From sequence record MZ956761.1: DNA of 64,000 nucleotides, one strand, 5' to 3'. Both the position numbers and the translations under genes were made by a program. This document shows, piece by piece, positions 10,089 to 39,367 of the stretch (positions are counted from its first letter, which is position 1; every line of letters begins with the position of its first letter). Below the pieces are notes generated by a model that was given only the letters and a program-made list of their open reading frames with translations, was not told the origin of the DNA and ran no database searches. This stretch comes from a phage.

Positions 10089-10161
10089 TGGGAATTAGCC
10101 AAGTTGGTAAGGCATAGCACTTTGACTGCTAGATGCAAAGGTTCGAGTCCTTTATTCCCAG
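10089..10161 (+). tRNA. tRNA-Gln (UUG)
   Basis: Acceptor tgggaat/attccca, T-loop ttcgagt, anticodon loop cTTTGAc. Confidence 0.85.
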
Positions 10162-10162
10162 C

Positions 10163-10249
10163 GCGAGAATGGTCAAATTGGTAAAGGCACAGCACTTAAA
10201 ATGCTGCGGAATGATTTCCTTGTGGGTTCGAGTCCCACTTCTCGCACCA
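10163..10249 (+). tRNA. tRNA-Leu (UAA), type II, CCA encoded
   Basis: Acceptor gcgagaa/ttctcgc, anticodon loop cTTAAAa, long variable arm. Confidence 0.85.
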
Positions 10250-10254
10250 AATTT

Positions 10255-10328
<74 letters not shown>

Positions 10329-10338
10329 ATTTAATCTA

Positions 10339-10412
10339 CTCCGTGTAGCTCAGTTTGGTAGAGCGCCTGATTTGGGATCAGGAGGTCCAAGGTTCAAATC
10401 CTTGTATGGAGA
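10339..10412 (+). tRNA. tRNA-Pro (UGG)
   Basis: Acceptor ctccgtg/tatggag (two G-U), anticodon loop tTTGGGa. Confidence 0.8.
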
Positions 10413-10414
10413 CT

Positions 10415-10504
10415 GGAGGCGTGGCAGAGTGGTTTAATGCACCGGTCTTGAAAACCGGCAGTCGCTCCGGCGACTCATAGGTTCAAATCCTATCGCCTCC
10501 GCCA
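10415..10504 (+). tRNA. tRNA-Ser (UGA), type II, CCA encoded
   Basis: Acceptor ggaggcg/cgcctcc, anticodon loop cTTGAAa, long variable arm. Confidence 0.85.
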
Positions 10505-10509
10505 GTTTT

Positions 10510-10585
10510 GCTGATTTAGCTCAGTAGGTAGAGCAACTCACTTGTAATGAGAAGGTCGGCGGTTCGATTCCGTCAATCAGCACCA
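10510..10585 (+). tRNA. tRNA-Thr (UGU), CCA encoded
   Basis: Acceptor gctgatt/aatcagc, anticodon loop cTTGTAa. Confidence 0.85.
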
Positions 10586-10586
10586 A

Positions 10587-10661
10587 GGCCCTGTAGCTGG
10601 AAGGTTCAAGCAAGCGACTCATAATCGCCAGATGGTGGTTCAATTCCACCCAGGGCCACCA
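10587..10661 (+). tRNA. tRNA with CAU anticodon (Ile by analogy with T4; Met not excluded)
   Basis: Acceptor ggccctg/cagggcc, anticodon loop cTCATAa. Confidence 0.8.
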
Positions 10662-10674
10662 AATTAAGAATTAA

Positions 10675-10761
10675 GGGGAGTTATCCCGTAGAGGTAGCGG
10701 TGTGGACTGTAAATCCATTGTCATTGCGACTCGGGTGGTTCGACTCCATCACTCCCCACCA
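10675..10761 (+). tRNA. tRNA-Tyr (GUA), type II, CCA encoded
   Basis: Acceptor ggggagt/actcccc, anticodon loop cTGTAAa, variable arm resembling bacterial tRNA-Tyr. Confidence 0.75.
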
Positions 10762-10765
10762 ATTT

Positions 10766-10840
10766 GGATGTGTAGCTCAATGGCAGAGCGATCGCCTGTT
10801 AAGCGATTGGTTATAGGTTCGAATCCTATCACGTCCGCCA
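10766..10840 (+). tRNA. tRNA-Asn (GUU), CCA encoded
   Basis: Acceptor ggatgtg/cacgtcc, anticodon stem atcgc/gcgat, loop cTGTTAa. Confidence 0.8.
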
Positions 10841-10954
10841 AATTTGTGACAACTGTCACATTAATATCTACTTGACGCGATTATAGGGGTTGAACTGATC
10901 ACTCTTCTCTTAATTTCGTGTGAAGACATCTTGATTGTTGGAGTAGGTATTAAT
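10841..10954 (+). ncRNA. Inter-tRNA spacer, possible small stable RNA
   Basis: 114-nt segment between tRNA-Asn and tRNA-His with hairpin tgtgac-aact-gtcaca at 10845-10860; tRNA processing would release it. Confidence 0.25.
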
Positions 10955-11030
10955 GTGGCCGTAGTTCAGTTGGTAGAACTCGAGATTGTGATTCTCGTAG
11001 TCATGGGTTCGACTCCCATCGGTCACCCCA
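10955..11030 (+). tRNA. tRNA-His (GUG), CCA encoded
   Basis: Acceptor gtggccg/cggtcac, anticodon stem cgaga/tctcg, loop tTGTGAt. Confidence 0.8.
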
Positions 11031-11034
11031 ATTA

Positions 11035-11110
11035 CGGGGCATAGCTCAGAAGGAAGAGCAAGGACCTTCTAAGTCCTAGGTCGTAGGTTCGATCCCTACT
11101 GCCTCGACCA
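11035..11110 (+). tRNA. tRNA-Arg (UCU), CCA encoded
   Basis: Acceptor cggggca/tgcctcg, anticodon loop cTTCTAa. Confidence 0.85.
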
Positions 11111-16983: not shown

Positions 16984-17301
16984 ATGAAAACGTATAAAGA
17001 ATTTATTGCAGAATCTGCTGCAGGACAACGTGTAGAAGGCGGTTATATCTGGATTGAACAAGTTGAGCCGCCGAGTCGCACTTCTACGGGTAAATGGAAA
17101 ATCACTGTTGATGGTCCTGGTGGTAAACGTAGGACTCTTAAAGAAATTAACGGGTACTATGAAGAAGCTCTTTCTGACGCGGGTACTTATATGATGCAAA
17201 TCATGATTAAAAACCCAGAAAATCGTTTTGCGGCTAGAGTTTTCCGCCGTATTGGAAATAAGCTTTATGATGCATATTCTAAAAACTTTCCTAAAGAATA
17301 A
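16984..17301 (+). CDS. Internal protein (CTS MKTYKEFIAE)
   Basis: 105 aa; CTS-type N-terminus with I-A-E site; IPII/IPIII locus position. Confidence 0.6.
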   Translation: MKTYKEFIAESAAGQRVEGGYIWIEQVEPPSRTSTGKWKITVDGPGGKRRTLKEINGYYEEALSDAGTYMMQIMIKNPENRFAARVFRRIGNKLYDAYSKNFPKE

Positions 17302-17317
17302 AAATTAAAGGATACAC

Positions 17318-17791
17318 ATGAAAACATATCAAGAATTTATTACTGAAGCAGCTATTAATTCTCAAATTATTGCTGAATCTTTTACTGATCTTTTGAAATT
17401 TAAAAAAGGTCAAAAAATCACTGCTGTATTGGATGATGGTACAGAAGTTGAGATGGATGTACAGGGATATAATTATGCAGTAGATGGAAAACTGTATAAT
17501 AAATCTCATGCTAAATTTGATTCATTTGACGACTTTGTTAATACAGTTGAAGATGAAAAAACTCGTAGATCCATTGCAACTGGTGATGCTAAGGTTCTTA
17601 TGGCACATGGTCATGAACGCATTCGCGCTAAACAGAATAAAATGGGTGAAGATAATTTTGCATTAGTTGGTTATCAATCTGGTAAACAAACTTATGGCTA
17701 TCAGCGTACTGCTACCATGTATAACAAAAATGGTAAAATCGCTTTCGTGAATAGCAAAGGCTCTATTCAGTACGTCAAATCATTCAAATAA
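17318..17791 (+). CDS. Internal protein (CTS MKTYQEFITE)
   Basis: 157 aa; CTS-type N-terminus. Confidence 0.6.
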   Translation: MKTYQEFITEAAINSQIIAESFTDLLKFKKGQKITAVLDDGTEVEMDVQGYNYAVDGKLYNKSHAKFDSFDDFVNTVEDEKTRRSIATGDAKVLMAHGHERIRAKQNKMGEDNFALVGYQSGKQTYGYQRTATMYNKNGKIAFVNSKGSIQYVKSFK

Positions 17792-17944
17792 GCAAATAAG
17801 AAATATGGGAACAAGCTGGACCTCATGATTCTATGAGGGATTCCCGCCAACCTGTAATAAGGTCGAGCCCAAGCGCGGTAATGGGTAAATACAGAAATGG
17901 ACAATTCATGCGCCATGGAATGGCCCAAATTTAGAGAGAATAAA

Positions 17945-18484
17945 ATGAGAACATTTTTAACTGGTCCTTATCTATCCCTGATGAATGCTTTTACACACCA
18001 TTCTGATGCTAGAGTAGAAGAAATTTGTAAAAACGAATATATCCCGCCATTTGAAGACTTACTCAAACAGTACTGCACACTTCGCATAGATGGTGGACGT
18101 CAATCCGGCAAATCAATTGCTGTGACTAACTTTGCTGCTAATTGGCTGTATGATGGCGGAACAGTTATTGTTCTTTCTAATACTTCAGCTTACGCTAAAA
18201 TTTCTGCAAATAACATCAAAAAGGAATTTTCGCGTTATTCTAATGATGATATACGTTTTCGTTTATTTACTGATTCTGTGCGCAGTTTTATTGGTAATAA
18301 AGGAAGCAAGTTCAGAGGTTTATCGCTTTCGCGAATTTTGTATATAATTGATGAGCCTGTCAAATCTCCTGATATGGATAAGATTTATAGTGTCCATATT
18401 GACACTGTACACTACTGCTGTAATAGTAAATGTTGCATTGGTGGTATTACTCGTCCGCAGTTTTTCGTAATCGGAATGCAATGA
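17945..18484 (+). CDS. Small P-loop NTPase-like protein
   Basis: 179 aa from ATG 17945 (RBS GAGAGAATAAA); Walker A-like DGGRQSGKS and Walker B-like ILYIIDEP; where T4 has denV. Confidence 0.45.
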   Translation: MRTFLTGPYLSLMNAFTHHSDARVEEICKNEYIPPFEDLLKQYCTLRIDGGRQSGKSIAVTNFAANWLYDGGTVIVLSNTSAYAKISANNIKKEFSRYSNDDIRFRLFTDSVRSFIGNKGSKFRGLSLSRILYIIDEPVKSPDMDKIYSVHIDTVHYCCNSKCCIGGITRPQFFVIGMQ

Positions 18485-18810
18485 TGACAGATACACAGCT
18501 TTTCGAATATCTCTATTTTTCGCCAAAAACTATTAAAAATAAATTGGTAAATCATTTTGAAATTTTGGCAAATAACAACATTTTGAGCGAATTTTATCCC
18601 AAGCAATACAAATTACAAAAAGGTGTATTCAAAGGATGCAGAGTTTTGTGCACTGCTCCTAATGCACGGCTAATGAATAAAATTCCATATTTTACCATGG
18701 AATTTATTGATGGACCTTTTAAAGGATTAATTACGCAAAGTTTAATGGCATATGATTCTGAGCCGTTTTTAATTAAAGAACAATCTTGGATAAATTTATT
18801 TTCTAATTGA
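18481..18810 (+). CDS. Hypothetical protein, translationally coupled to upstream NTPase-like gene
   Basis: 109 aa from ATGATG overlapping upstream TGA. Confidence 0.4.
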
Positions 18811-18817
18811 GGTTTAT

Positions 18818-19180
18818 ATGAAAGCATATCAAATTCTTGAAGGCACACATAAAGGTACTATTTATTTTGAAGATGGTATTCAGGCACGAATTATTGTCTC
18901 TAAAACCTTTAAAGAGGACTCTTTTGTAGACCCAGAAATTTTCTATGGTTTGCACGCCCGTGAAATTGAAATTGAAACACAACCTACAGTTAAAATTGAA
19001 GGTGGTCAGCACCTGAACGTTAACGTTCTGCGTCGTGAAACTTTGGAAGATGCAGTTAAGCATCCGGAAAAATATCCGCAGCTGACCATCCGTGTATCCG
19101 GTTATGCAGTTCGCTTTAACTCTCTGACTCCGGAACAGCAGCGCGACGTTATCGCTCGTACCTTTACTGAGAGTCTGTAA
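18818..19180 (+). CDS. Autonomous glycyl radical cofactor (GrcA/YfiD-like)
   Basis: 120 aa; C-terminal [61 protein letters not shown] is the glycyl-radical motif region of enterobacterial GrcA. Confidence 0.8.
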
Positions 19181-19401
19181 TGGCAAAGATAATTATTGAA
19201 GGTTCTAAAGATGTGCTAAATGCTTTCGCAGAATGGTTTAGTAATTCAGGCGAACAGCAATTTAATGAAGCGTGGAATATGGGTGATATTAGTGGAATTT
19301 ATCCTACGACAGAAATTTCTGTTCAGGGATATGGCATTCATGAACCTATTCGTTTAGTTGAATATGATTTATGTACTGGTGAGGAAGTCAAATATGATTG
19401 A
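19180..19401 (+). CDS. Hypothetical protein
   Basis: 73 aa ORF, ATG overlapping upstream stop. Confidence 0.45.
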   Translation: MAKIIIEGSKDVLNAFAEWFSNSGEQQFNEAWNMGDISGIYPTTEISVQGYGIHEPIRLVEYDLCTGEEVKYD

Positions 19402-19660
19402 AGATATTAAAGGTTATAAGCCACATACTGAAGAGAAAATCGGTAAAGTAAATGCTATTAAAGACGCTGAAGTTCGTTTAGGACTTATCTTTGATGCTTT
19501 ATACGATGAATTTTGGGAAGCATTTGATAGCTGTGAAGATGATGAACTCGCGAAGAATTATGCCGAAAGCCTCGATCAGTTAACTATTGCTAAAACGAAA
19601 CTCAAAGAAGCCAGTATGTGGGCTTGTCGTGCAGTGTTCCAACCAGAGGAAAAATACTAA
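19394..19660 (+). CDS. Hypothetical protein
   Basis: 88 aa from ATG 19394 (RBS GAGGAAG); track start 19358 overlaps upstream gene. Confidence 0.45.
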
Positions 19661-19938
19661 TGGCTCAATTAAGTGCAGGGTTTGGTTATGAGTATTATAC
19701 TGCACCTCGTCGTGTATCTGCCGCTCCTAAGAAAATTCAAAGTCTTGATGACTTCCAGGAAGTAGTCCGTAAAGCTTTCCAAGACTATGCACGTTATCTT
19801 AAAGAAGATTCACAGGACTGTCTCGAAGAAGATGAAATTGCTTACTATGAGCAGCGTCTTGAACAGCTTAAAAACTTACATGAGGTTCGTGCAGAAGTTT
19901 CAAAGTCTATGAATAAATTGATTAGATTTAAAGAATAA
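19660..19938 (+). CDS. Hypothetical protein
   Basis: 92 aa from ATG 19660; acidic helical C-terminus. Confidence 0.45.
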
Positions 19939-19940
19939 CT

Positions 19941-19970
19941 GTTTACTTTTCCTCTTGACTGTGGTATAAT
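19941..19970 (+). promoter_or_regulatory. Early promoter (GTTTAC-N18-TATAAT)
   Basis: Perfect TATAAT at 19965-19970 with TG two nt upstream. Confidence 0.55.
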
Positions 19971-19997
19971 TTTTCTATCAGTTAAGAGGAGAATAAC

Positions 19998-20459
19998 ATG
20001 ACTATCAATACAGAAGTTTTTATCCGTCGAAATAAGCTTCGTCGTCACTTTGAGTCGGAGTTTCGTCAAATTAACAATGAGATTCGTGAGGCATCAAAAG
20101 CAGCAGGGGTCTCATCGTTTCATCTAAAATATTCTCAGCATCTTCTTGATCGCGCAATTCAACGGGAGATTGATGAGACATATGTTTTTGAATTATTCCA
20201 TAAAATAAAAGACCATGTTTTAGAAGTTAATGAATTCCTGAGTATGCCTCCGCGTCCTGACATTGACGAGGATTTTATTGATGGGGTTGAATATCGTCCT
20301 GGACGTTTAGAAATCACAGATGGAAATCTTTGGCTTGGATTTACAGTTTGTAAACCTAATGCGAAGTTCAAAGACCCGTCACTTCAATGTAGGATGGCAA
20401 TTATCAACAGTCGTCGTTTACCAGGAAAGGCTTCTAAAGCAGTAATTAAAACTCAATGA
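19998..20459 (+). CDS. regB: Probable RegB endoribonuclease
   Basis: 153 aa basic protein; size and position between e-IP block and tk. Confidence 0.55.
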   Translation: MTINTEVFIRRNKLRRHFESEFRQINNEIREASKAAGVSSFHLKYSQHLLDRAIQREIDETYVFELFHKIKDHVLEVNEFLSMPPRPDIDEDFIDGVEYRPGRLEITDGNLWLGFTVCKPNAKFKDPSLQCRMAIINSRRLPGKASKAVIKTQ

Positions 20460-20466
20460 GGTAAGC

Positions 20467-21012
20467 ATGAGAAAAGCACTACTCGCTGGTCTATTGGCCA
20501 TTTCAATGATGGCACATAGCTCCGAGCATACTTTCAGTAATGTCCAACTCGATAACATGCGTTACGCGTATCAATTCGGGGAACAATTTTCTAAGGATGG
20601 AAAATATAAAACACACAAAAATATCCACAAGAGCGGATTAGGTCATATAATGGCAGCCATTTTATGGCAAGAAAGCTCTGGCGGAGTTAATTTAAAATCT
20701 AAACCAAAGCATCACGCCTACGGAATGTTCCAAAATTATTTGCCTACTATGCGAGCAAGAGTTAAGGAACTTGGTTATAATATGACCGATGCTGAAATAA
20801 AAAGAATGTTGAATAAACGATCCAATTCAGCTTCCTGGGCGTACATTGAACTTTATTATTGGTTAAATATACATAAGGGCGATATAAGAAAGGCGATATC
20901 CTCTTATAATTCGGGATGGAATGTTAAAGCAGGTTCTAAATATGCTTCTGAAGTCCTAGAAAAGGCTAATTACCTTAAAAATAATAAACTTTTGGAAATA
21001 GTAAATGACTAA
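20467..21012 (+). CDS. Secreted lytic transglycosylase-like protein
   Basis: 181 aa; N-terminal signal peptide; ILWQESSGG resembles SLT catalytic E-S motif. Confidence 0.5.
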   Translation: MRKALLAGLLAISMMAHSSEHTFSNVQLDNMRYAYQFGEQFSKDGKYKTHKNIHKSGLGHIMAAILWQESSGGVNLKSKPKHHAYGMFQNYLPTMRARVKELGYNMTDAEIKRMLNKRSNSASWAYIELYYWLNIHKGDIRKAISSYNSGWNVKAGSKYASEVLEKANYLKNNKLLEIVND

Positions 21013-36612: not shown

Positions 36613-37086
36613 ATGTTATTGACTGGCAAATTATATAAAGAAGAAAAACAGAAATTTTATGATGCACAAAACGGTAAATGTTTAATTTGCCAACGAGAAC
36701 TAAATCCTGATGTTCAAGCTAATCACCTTGACCATGACCATGAATTAAATGGACCAAAAGCAGGAAAGGTACGTGGATTGCTTTGTAATCTCTGCAATGC
36801 TGCAGAAGGTCAAATGAAGCATAAATTTAATCGTTCTGGCTTAAAGGGACAAGGTGTTGATTATCTTGAATGGTTAGAAAATTTACTCACTTATTTAAAA
36901 TCCGATTACACCCAAAATAATATTCACCCTAACTTTGTTGGAGATAAATCAAAGGAATTTTCTCGTTTAGGAAAAGAGGAAATGATGGCTGAGATGCTTC
37001 AAAGAGGATTTGAATATAATGAATCTGACACTAAAACACAATTAATAGCTTCATTTAAGAAGCAACTTAGAAAGAGTTTAAAATGA
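36613..37086 (+). CDS. 49: Endonuclease VII (Holliday junction resolvase) gp49
   Basis: 157 aa; recognised T4 endo VII zinc motif CLICQRELNPD...HLDHDH...CNLCN. Confidence 0.9.
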   Translation: MLLTGKLYKEEKQKFYDAQNGKCLICQRELNPDVQANHLDHDHELNGPKAGKVRGLLCNLCNAAEGQMKHKFNRSGLKGQGVDYLEWLENLLTYLKSDYTQNNIHPNFVGDKSKEFSRLGKEEMMAEMLQRGFEYNESDTKTQLIASFKKQLRKSLK

Positions 37087-38900
37087 CAATTGAAAAAGAA
37101 ATTGAAGGATTGATTCATAAAACTAATAAAGACCTTTTGAACGAGAATGCTAATAAAGATTCTCGTGTTTTTCCAACTCAACGGGACCTTATGGCTGGTA
37201 TTGTGTCTAAACACATTGCCAAAAATATGGTCCCGTCTTTTATTATGAAAGCGCATGAAAGCGGAATTATCCATTTCCATGATATTGATTATTCCCCTGC
37301 TCTTCCATTTACTAATTGCTGTTTAGTAGATTTAAAAGGAATGCTTGAAAACGGATTTAAGCTCGGTAATGCGCAGATTGAAACTCCTAAATCAATTGGC
37401 GTTGCTACTGCAATTATGGCACAAATTACTGCGCAGGTTGCTTCCCATCAATATGGCGGAACAACTTTTGCGAATGTAGATAAAGTACTTTCTCCTTATG
37501 TTAAACGCACCTATGCAAAACATATTGAGGATGCAGAAAAATGGCAAATCGCTGATGTGTTGAATTATGCCCAATCTAAAACAGAAAAAGACGTATACGA
37601 TGCATTCCAAGCTTATGAATATGAAGTAAATACTCTCTTTAGTTCAAACGGACAAACGCCTTTTGTAACAATTACATTTGGTACGGGAACTGACTGGACT
37701 GAACGAATGATTCAGAAAGCAATTCTGAAAAATCGTATTAAAGGTCTTGGTCGTGATGGGATAACTCCTATTTTCCCTAAGCTTGTTATGTTCGTTGAAG
37801 AAGGTGTTAATCTTTATAAAGACGATCCGAACTATGATATTAAGCAGCTTGCTCTAGAGTGTGCAAGCAAAAGGATGTATCCTGATATTATTTCAGTTAA
37901 GAACAATAAAGCTATCACTGGTTCATCTGTTCCTGTTTCTCCAATGGGTTGCCGTAGTTTCTTGAGCGTATGGAAAGATTCGACTGGTAATGAAATTCTT
38001 GATGGGCGTAATAATCTTGGTGTTGTAACACTGAATCTTCCTCGTATTGCGTTAGATTCTTATATTGGAACACAGTTTAATGAACAGAAATTTGCCGAAT
38101 TGTTCAATGAACGAATGGATTTGTGTTTTGAAGCTTTGATGTGTAGAATTAGTTCCTTAAAAGGAGTTAAAGCGACTGTTGCTCCTATTCTTTACCAAGA
38201 AGGTGCATTCGGGGTTCGTCTTAAACCTGATGACGACATAATTGAGTTATTTAAAAACGGTAGAAGTTCAGTGTCCTTAGGATACATTGGTATTCACGAA
38301 TTGAATATTCTTGTCGGTCGTGATATTGGACAGGAAATTTTGACTAAAATGAATGCTCGTCTTAAGCAGTGGACTGAAAGAACCGGTTTTGCTTTTAGCT
38401 TGTATTCTACTCCTGCTGAAAACCTGTGCTATCGCTTCTGTAAACTTGATACTGAGAAATATGGAAGTGTAAAGGATGTTACTGATAAAGGCTGGTACAC
38501 TAACAGTTTCCATGTTTCAGTAGAAGAAAATATTACTCCGTTTGAAAAGATTTCTCGCGAAGCCCCATATCATTTCATTGCGACAGGCGGTCACATTTCT
38601 TATGTTGAACTTCCTGATATGAAAAATAACTTAAAAGGTCTTGAGGCTGTATGGGATTATGCTGCACAACATTTAGATTATTTTGGTGTTAACATGCCAG
38701 TAGATAAATGTTTTACATGTGGAAGTACACATGAAATGACTCCTACTGAAAACGGATTTGTTTGTTCTATTTGTGGAGAAACTGATCCTAAAAAGATGAA
38801 CACAATAAGAAGAACTTGTGGTTATTTGGGAAATCCGAACGAACGCGGATTTAATCTCGGCAAAAATAAAGAAATCATGCATAGGGTTAAACACCAATGA
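37083..38900 (+). CDS. nrdD: Anaerobic ribonucleotide reductase NrdD
   Basis: 605 aa continuous ORF; C-terminal CxxC...CxxC and glycyl-radical region; followed by nrdG. Confidence 0.9.
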   Translation: MTIEKEIEGLIHKTNKDLLNENANKDSRVFPTQRDLMAGIVSKHIAKNMVPSFIMKAHESGIIHFHDIDYSPALPFTNCCLVDLKGMLENGFKLGNAQIETPKSIGVATAIMAQITAQVASHQYGGTTFANVDKVLSPYVKRTYAKHIEDAEKWQIADVLNYAQSKTEKDVYDAFQAYEYEVNTLFSSNGQTPFVTITFGTGTDWTERMIQKAILKNRIKGLGRDGITPIFPKLVMFVEEGVNLYKDDPNYDIKQLALECASKRMYPDIISVKNNKAITGSSVPVSPMGCRSFLSVWKDSTGNEILDGRNNLGVVTLNLPRIALDSYIGTQFNEQKFAELFNERMDLCFEALMCRISSLKGVKATVAPILYQEGAFGVRLKPDDDIIELFKNGRSSVSLGYIGIHELNILVGRDIGQEILTKMNARLKQWTERTGFAFSLYSTPAENLCYRFCKLDTEKYGSVKDVTDKGWYTNSFHVSVEENITPFEKISREAPYHFIATGGHISYVELPDMKNNLKGLEAVWDYAAQHLDYFGVNMPVDKCFTCGSTHEMTPTENGFVCSICGETDPKKMNTIRRTCGYLGNPNERGFNLGKNKEIMHRVKHQ

Positions 38901-39367
38901 ATTATGATAGATTTTATCCTTGCGATTTTGTGAATGGCCCTGGATGCAGGGTCGTTCTTTTCGTTACAGGTTGTTTGCATAAATGCGAAGGGTGTTATAA
39001 TAAATCAACATGGAATGCTAGAAACGGTGTTCCATTCACTGGTGAAACGCTGGAACAATTAATTGAATGTTTGAATAATGATTATATAGAAGGATTAACT
39101 ATAACTGGAGGAGACCCTCTCTATCCTGATAACCGAGATGTTGTTCATTGCATTGTTCAAACAGTAAAAAATCTTTATCCCAATAAAAGCATTTGGTTGT
39201 GGACAGGATATAAGTTTGAAGATATTAAACAACTAGAAATGCTTAAATATGTTGATGTTATTATTGATGGGAAGTATGAGAAAAATCTTCCGACTAAAAA
39301 GCTGTGGCGAGGATCAGATAATCAGCGACTTTGGTCAAATACCGATGGGGTGTGGAAACATGATTAA
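38897..39367 (+). CDS. nrdG: Anaerobic RNR activating enzyme NrdG
   Basis: 156 aa; radical-SAM cysteine cluster CLHKCEGC. Confidence 0.9.
   Translation: MNYDRFYPCDFVNGPGCRVVLFVTGCLHKCEGCYNKSTWNARNGVPFTGETLEQLIECLNNDYIEGLTITGGDPLYPDNRDVVHCIVQTVKNLYPNKSIWLWTGYKFEDIKQLEMLKYVDVIIDGKYEKNLPTKKLWRGSDNQRLWSNTDGVWKHD

Follow-up and report, generated by a model that had tools for sequence, protein, structure and literature searches.

A T4-like phage vs.6 gene with a glycyl-radical segment nearly identical to Escherichia coli grcA

Previous work, as Wagner et al. 2001 is cited in PMC8683613, showed that E. coli YfiD (GrcA) and its T4 counterpart Y06I (Vs.6) are activated by the PFL-activating enzyme and restore oxygen-cleaved PFL. 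Residues 61-127 of YfiD share their fold with PFL 693-759, the C-terminal domain of YfiD replaces PFL residues 696-759, and the disordered N-terminal half promotes cPFL binding and radical installation (PMC8683613). vs.6 was present in every T4-like genome compared in an earlier study (PMC1524935), and most database records already label its homologs autonomous glycyl radical cofactor. Neither the gene and its family nor the biochemical activity is new, and the window, by which we mean the whole 64,000-nt stretch of phage DNA analysed here (MZ956761.1), holds no new kind of system; its evolutionary pattern is of somewhat more interest than the gene itself. For that pattern cyanophage psbA offers a comparison: Zeidner and colleagues in 2005 and Sullivan and colleagues in 2006 are said to have attributed its host-type patches and shifted GC to homologous exchange with the host gene. 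As in psbA, the window contains a phage copy of a host metabolic gene with host-type sequence patches. The gene, the host and the phage group are different, however; the host-type sequence here is a single domain-sized tract nearly equal to the present host allele, and the window phage is a virulent coliphage that degrades host DNA.

The DNA around vs.6 is 100% identical to Escherichia phage ADUt and 95-98% identical to RB14, T2, T4 and hundreds more Tequatroviruses, and on this evidence the window is T4-like (Tequatrovirus). Its genes run nudE, e (lysozyme), internal proteins, vs.8, vs.7, vs.6, vs.5, vs.4, vs.3, regB, vs.1 and on to tk, as in T4, and the early cluster vs.8-vs.7-vs.6-vs.5...regB has the same synteny in T4T and RB14. 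Because the gene order matches that of T4, the ORF at 18818..19180 was assigned as vs.6; judged by its sequence, it is the Tequatrovirus ortholog of T4 Vs.6/Y06I, a small, stand-alone GrcA/YfiD-type glycyl-radical protein. The gene has the following features:

18818..19180, + strand: vs.6 CDS from the ORF list, 120 aa plus stop, phage autonomous glycyl radical cofactor.
18809..18812, + strand: GAGG, a putative RBS read from the sequence, 5 nt before the ATG of vs.6.
18818..18995, + strand: 5' half of vs.6, a diverged GrcA N-terminal region with no E. coli nucleotide match.
18996..19170, + strand: tract of host origin, matching E. coli grcA at 174/175 nt and encoding most of the structured glycyl-radical domain.
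19091..19111, + strand: RVSGYAV motif, with the Gly95 codon at 19100..19102, equivalent to GrcA Gly102 and PFL Gly734.
19169..19180, + strand: phage-type 3' end GAG AGT CTG TAA, common to distant phage genera, its TAA overlapping the vs.5 ATG.

The GAGG overlaps the vs.7 TGA stop (18808..18810), the overlap of the vs.6 TAA with the vs.5 ATG lies at 19180, and the ORF, with its putative RBS and its own stop, has the size of a small stand-alone protein of ~14 kDa. The product is identical to T4T Vs.6 at 119/120 aa (T54 here, P in T4T), and the gene is identical to T4 Vs.6 at 355/363 nt. Identity is 100% to ADUt and 96-98% to hundreds of Tequatroviruses. The match to phrog_1209 spans residues 1-120 of the 121-position profile (E 5.4e-63), i.e., the similarity to the phage family is full-length. 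T4 Vs.6 and the window gene both lie upstream of regB, flanked by vs.7 and vs.5, and both have an E. coli-like 3' tract; they are distinguished by that one residue, by a few synonymous bases, and by 3' codons that are GAG AGT CTG here and GAA AGT TTG in T4T.

Several other features of the region were noted. An antisense 127-aa ORF with a TTG start (18803..19186, - strand) covers all of vs.6; it is probably a by-product of the sense-strand codon pattern, and we saw no sign that it is a real gene. Scanning 17200-20600 for promoters and terminators gave no more sites than in shuffles, and an Rfam search found only tRNAs, away from vs.6. The latter form a cluster at 10089..11107 (+ strand) of 11 RF00005 matches, of which the one at 10677..10756 is barely above the gathering score. 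The gene immediately upstream of vs.8 in T4T is denV, which is absent from the window segment 17318..18484; here vs.8 (17897..18484) comes after an internal-protein-like ORF (17318..17791, N-terminus MKTYQEF), and the first ~17 vs.8 residues are unlike those in T4. There is also a small GC-rich patch (GC 0.475) at 17800-17920.

Membership of the GrcA/YfiD family, catalogued as TIGR04365 and IPR011140, was assessed with profile and sequence searches. The RVSGYAV glycyl-radical motif occupies residues 92-98, with Gly95 as the radical glycine in a GrcA-type loop, and the Pfam Gly_radical model matches residues 60-101 (E 2.2e-18, 67.2 bits, cut-off 22.2). By phmmer, residues 22-120 match GrcA 28-127 (NMR structure 6owr; E 4.6e-42) and residues 58-120 match PFL residues 697-759 (E 4.8e-26). 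NCBIfam TIGR04365 matches residues 20-120 at 154.6 bits, short of the equivalog cut-off of 170 because the N-terminus has diverged. The first ~20 residues cannot be aligned to GrcA; beyond them the N-terminal half has weak but significant similarity to GrcA residues 28-67 (13/40 identical, 33% over 40 aa, E 6e-6). E. coli GrcA (YfiD, 6OWR) and the window protein thus agree in size class, in two-part layout and in the last 60 residues, including the RVSGYAV loop. They differ in the N-terminal half, which in the window is 7 residues shorter, diverged as just given and devoid of nucleotide similarity, and in context, the window gene lying in a virulent-phage early-gene cluster and E. coli grcA between ung and eamB. 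The C-terminal domain of PflB (693-759) has the same radical motif and is the piece replaced by the spare part, but PFL is an 85-kDa enzyme, unlike the stand-alone 14-kDa vs.6 protein, and the tail of vs.6 has about 80% nucleotide identity to pflB versus more than 99% to grcA.

The earlier note on this DNA had claimed, from the letters alone, that the C-terminal ~60 aa match GrcA almost residue for residue and are written in GC-richer, host-like codons, and had proposed a nucleotide alignment with host grcA and a composition plot as checks. The match is in fact complete: at 60/60 positions, residues 61-120 (EGGQH...TESL) agree with residues 68-127 of E. coli GrcA. The alignment bore the proposal out at the DNA level too. 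When 5,426 complete E. coli genomes were searched with blastn, grcA of every genome matched window 18996..19180 at 95-99% (best 182/185); the first 178 nt of vs.6 had zero nucleotide matches in the same 5,426 genomes, and none of them contained full-length vs.6. In an ungapped alignment to grcA the identity begins abruptly at ~18996. Only three mismatches, all synonymous, follow (19043, 19171 and 19174). The sole one within 18996..19170 is 19043 (CTG>TTG), and the figure of 174/175 for this tract leaves out the phage-type last codons. The tract corresponds to GrcA residues 68-125, which lie within the structured domain 61-127 (PMC8683613). Among 81 grcA genes of Enterobacterales and Pasteurellaceae, a host panel without K. 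pneumoniae, the tail is nearer E. coli (174/177) than another Escherichia species (171/177) or Citrobacter amalonaticus (162/177), and the 81-species median is 0.847. For a 171-nt core the counts are 170/171 to E. coli grcA and 150/171 to K. pneumoniae grcA.

The composition of the gene, likewise, is far from uniform. The tail has GC 0.500 and GC3 0.448, versus GC 0.339 and GC3 0.190 for the head (18818..18995) and a background of GC 0.356 +/- 0.040 and GC3 0.245 +/- 0.063 in 1,184 58-codon windows from 77 ORFs. The tail is the GC maximum among those windows, and its GC3 is attained in just 0.17% of them. Its preference for CTG, CCG, AAC, ATC and CAG is opposite to the norm of the window: CTG serves 5/6 Leu, CCG 3/3, AAC 3/3 and ATC 2/2, compared with 7%, 16%, 25% and 15%, respectively, in the window's genes. 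The 3' half of vs.6 is, by its DNA identity and composition, recently host-derived. E. coli grcA shows host-type codon usage and occupies a normal place among its enterobacterial counterparts, and the transfer therefore ran from host to phage. Very probably, then, the best explanation is that vs.6 is an old phage gene for a PFL-rescuing glycyl-radical product, in which the segment 18996..19170 was lately overwritten by an E. coli grcA allele.

A second replacement, with a different donor, is evident in Klebsiella phages of the genus Jiaodavirus. The vs.6 gene of KPV15 has a GC step of 0.36 to 0.57, larger than that of the window, and its 3' half is 96.6% identical to K. pneumoniae grcA versus 86.9% to E. 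coli; for the 171-nt core the counts are 166/171 and 149/171. The E. coli and K. pneumoniae grcA cores agree at 151/171 positions, leaving 20 discriminating sites. At these sites the window gene has the E. coli base 20/20 times, four Jiaodaviruses (KPV15, Mineola, Roth20 and KpnM6E1) have the K. pneumoniae base 14-18/20 times, and outgroup phages are mixed. When K. pneumoniae grcA was used as the query, 106 Klebsiella-phage records matched at 95-99%, with the 5' edge as in the window and the 3' edge 10-15 nt before the stop. The discriminating sites indicate at least two independent, host-specific replacements, each by the allele of the local host, giving an E. coli type in Tequatrovirus and Mosigvirus and a K. 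pneumoniae type in Jiaodavirus. The K. pneumoniae-type Jiaodavirus tail is newly described here. Salmonella grcA found no phage match above 83.8%. With Enterobacter sichuanensis grcA a single phage record matched at 90-95%, and this record could be a third host-specific tail; otherwise the Salmonella and Enterobacter queries turned up no further host-specific events, hosts such as Cronobacter, Proteus and Aeromonas being outside the panel.

Some records used here need comment. The K. pneumoniae grcA comes from PLSDB, from a chromosome wrongly entered there as a plasmid; CP125156.1 (5.37 Mb) and LR134122.1 in that collection are whole or partial Klebsiella chromosomes filed as plasmids. A K. 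aerogenes grcA record was left out owing to an indel inside grcA. The deposited KPV15 vs.6 (NC_055715.1 69717-70078) has a 1-nt deletion and is annotated as two short ORFs; in its sister phages vs.6 is intact and encodes 120 aa.

How often the E. coli-type replacement occurred is less certain. In about 650 T-even records from E. coli and Shigella the tract is always of E. coli type; its 5' edge is the same throughout, and it is 93.5-98.4% identical to one O157 allele. When Tequatrovirus is compared with Mosigvirus, identity is 96-98% for the tails, 88% for the 5' halves and 64-74% for the flanks; synonymous differences number 2-6/57 conserved codons in the tail, 11-12/52-53 in the head and 25/48 in vs.5. 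Since divergence of the tail is far below that of the flanks, the tail is younger than the split of the two genera. The synonymous-site comparison of tail with 5' half is marginal (p 0.007-0.12) and does not discriminate between repeated captures and a single one with later spread among phages. These data might be explained by one ancient capture from E. coli that later passed between Tequatrovirus and Mosigvirus as phages recombined with one another, without further exchange with the host, and we hold this to be a serious possibility, somewhat short of an even chance. The 5' edge common to the ~650 records agrees with such a history, as does the fact that the whole of vs.6, 5' half included, is more alike between the genera than the flanks are, which fits whole-gene transfer. 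The shared edge is nonetheless uninformative, because it falls where usable homology ends and is seen again in Jiaodavirus, whose donor was another. Further, some phage cores equal alleles of present-day E. coli exactly: one Tequatrovirus contig in IMG/VR, where six close relatives only were covered, matches grcA of many E. coli genomes at 171/171. The phages also contain both variants of a CAG/CAA polymorphism of E. coli, one being that of the O157 allele and the other that of an Escherichia sp. allele and of the E. coli genomes matched at 171/171. Finally, RB69-type phages are reported not to recombine with T4 (PMC6024577). The competing proposal, to which we would give close to an even chance, is that the radical-domain segment of vs.6 is kept in step with the current host's grcA allele by recurrent homologous recombination, i.e., that a lytic-phage gene and its host homolog undergo concerted evolution.

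T-even phages have recombination-dependent replication, and their recombination with homologous plasmid inserts is known. The replacement would have come about by homologous patch recombination (gene conversion) between phage vs.6 and the chromosomal grcA of E. coli. A phage tail 80-85% identical to host grcA would be a poor yet usable substrate for recombination, and the limits of the remaining phage-host likeness would set the ends of the conversion on both sides. Once converted, the 170 nt of near-perfect homology would ease later exchange, and the tract would stay near current host alleles. Counting against this scheme, such exchange should be rare because T4-type phages degrade host DNA.

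The earlier note had also suggested that a spare glycyl-radical domain could rescue either host PFL or the NrdD encoded in the window. The genes that bear on the latter are:

36613..37086: gene 49-like ORF.
37083..38900: NrdD, 605 aa, with a Pfam Gly_radical domain.
38897..39367: NrdG, with a 4-nt overlap with nrdD.

T4 nrdD carries a group I intron; the window nrdD is one uninterrupted ORF. It is very unlikely, in our judgement, that the vs.6 product serves the phage NrdD by replacing an oxygen-cleaved glycyl-radical C-terminus, with NrdG as activase. The presence of NrdD, with its Gly_radical domain, and NrdG in the window would permit such a role, a nucleotide-metabolism function for vs.6 was proposed from the Pfam match alone (PMC1524935), and the homolog of Aeromonas phage ZPAH1 adjoins a gene for the small subunit of NTP reductase. 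In BLASTP of vs.6 against the window's NrdD, however, the best E was 2.6, away from the radical site, and the motif is RVSGYAV in vs.6 versus RRTCGYLG in NrdD. The tail is that of host GrcA and is highly similar to the PFL C-terminus, and T4 Y06I works with PFL and PFL-AE, as far as the work cited in PMC8683613 goes. The PFL half of the suggestion therefore stands, on the PFL match given above (E 4.8e-26) and the T4 Y06I biochemistry, and the NrdD half falls; host PFL is the likely partner.

Given that the RVSGYAV loop with Gly95 and the C-terminal domain are identical to those of host GrcA, the window protein would be expected, by analogy, to share the mechanism of T4 Y06I. With host gene expression off after infection, the phage would supply its own GrcA; the host activase PflA would put the radical on Gly95, the C-terminal domain would slot into host PFL with an oxygen-cleaved C-terminus, and the rescued enzyme would restore production of acetyl-CoA and formate under microaerobic conditions. 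Recognition of the partner could differ in detail, the N-terminal half being just 33% identical. The literature searched reports no in vivo phenotype for a vs.6 deletion, and the evidence for function comes from in vitro experiments on the T4 protein.

The part of the earlier note that called for recent host DNA is upheld by the 170/171 core, but the accompanying proposal, that the host sequence was fused to a phage-type N-terminus, is not. It is highly improbable that vs.6 arose as a new chimeric gene, made when a piece of host grcA was captured and linked to an unrelated ORF of the phage. An abrupt switch of composition and host identity at ~18996 is what a fusion would give. The 5' half, however, aligns to the GrcA N-terminal region, phrog_1209 covers residues 1-120, and full-length homologs exist in Mosigvirus, Jiaodavirus, Karamvirus, Slopekvirus, Pseudotevenvirus, T5-like, Aeromonas and jumbo phages. 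Identity of the 5' half to that of the window is 0.88 in Mosigvirus, 0.76 in Karamvirus, 0.72 in Jiaodavirus and 0.60 in Slopekvirus, and by this gradation the 5' half evolves with the phage lineage. The homologs of Karamvirus, Slopekvirus, Pseudotevenvirus, T5-like (Tequintavirus), Aeromonas and jumbo phages resemble vs.6 in family, length and conserved tail protein. Unlike that of vs.6, their complete tails are not recently host-derived, being 72-85% identical in nucleotides to any grcA of the 81-species host panel; Jiaodavirus is the exception. Since complete phage-type tails exist elsewhere, host DNA replaced the homologous segment of an old phage gene and did not create a gene.

The extreme 3' codons are phage-type as well. 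GAGAGTCT[G/A]TAA is the gene end here and also in Mosigvirus, Slopekvirus Roth22 and Pseudotevenvirus GAP161, and E. coli has GAAAGCCTGTAA; the 3' end of E. coli grcA reads GAA AGC CTG TAA. With phage-type last codons and a homologous 5' half, both junctions fall inside a pre-existing homologous gene, although the exact 3' breakpoint cannot be placed because T4T ends GAA AGT TTG. We infer that gene conversion replaced a patch of about 175 nt (18996..19170), and that no fusion took place. The patch matches the structured YfiD C-terminal domain (61-127) almost exactly, and the diverged half is the disordered N-terminal half (PMC8683613).

Because the tail protein is nearly invariant across bacteria and phages, constraint on the protein must be separated from transfer of DNA. 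Extreme purifying selection or codon constraint on the conserved domain, with no DNA transfer, would draw on that conservation among all hosts and phages, but it is already refuted by the synonymous-site pattern: phage tails with exactly the same amino acids reach just 81-83% DNA identity (GAP161, 142/171 nt to E. coli grcA; Roth22, 138/171 nt to K. pneumoniae grcA), the probability of at least 170/171 at the GAP161 per-site rate is 5.7e-13, and at the 20/171 sites where E. coli and K. pneumoniae grcA differ each phage lineage has its own host's bases. The tail proteins of these two phages are themselves of host variants, that of the Klebsiella phage Roth22 (Slopekvirus) being the K. pneumoniae GrcA variant (LLDAVEH) and that of the Cronobacter phage GAP161 the E. 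coli-type variant (LEDAVKH); their tails could be older, decayed conversions or protein-level convergence.

Neither the host-identical nucleotide tract nor its host-specific recurrence is mentioned in the literature searched, including PMC1524935, PMC2993671, PMC13450708 and PMC9697503; older key T4 papers were outside that scope, and an earlier mention is possible. In sum, the window phage is strictly lytic and destroys host DNA, yet one domain-sized patch of its genome is, base for base, close to the host allele, and in a sister genus on Klebsiella the Klebsiella allele occupies the same place. The vs.6 patch is thus a clean, countable marker of homologous exchange from host to phage, and it belongs to a spare-part protein whose disordered N-terminal half and structured radical domain have separate evolutionary histories. 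For annotators, a phage 'GrcA' is a mosaic, and composition-based calls of horizontal transfer at this gene reflect conversion of a patch, not acquisition of a gene. The vs.6 tail also suggests a simple readout of recent host use from T-even genomes. If conversion is indeed recurrent, vs.6 would be a natural reporter both of the rate of DNA exchange between phage and host and of the recent host history of T-even phages.
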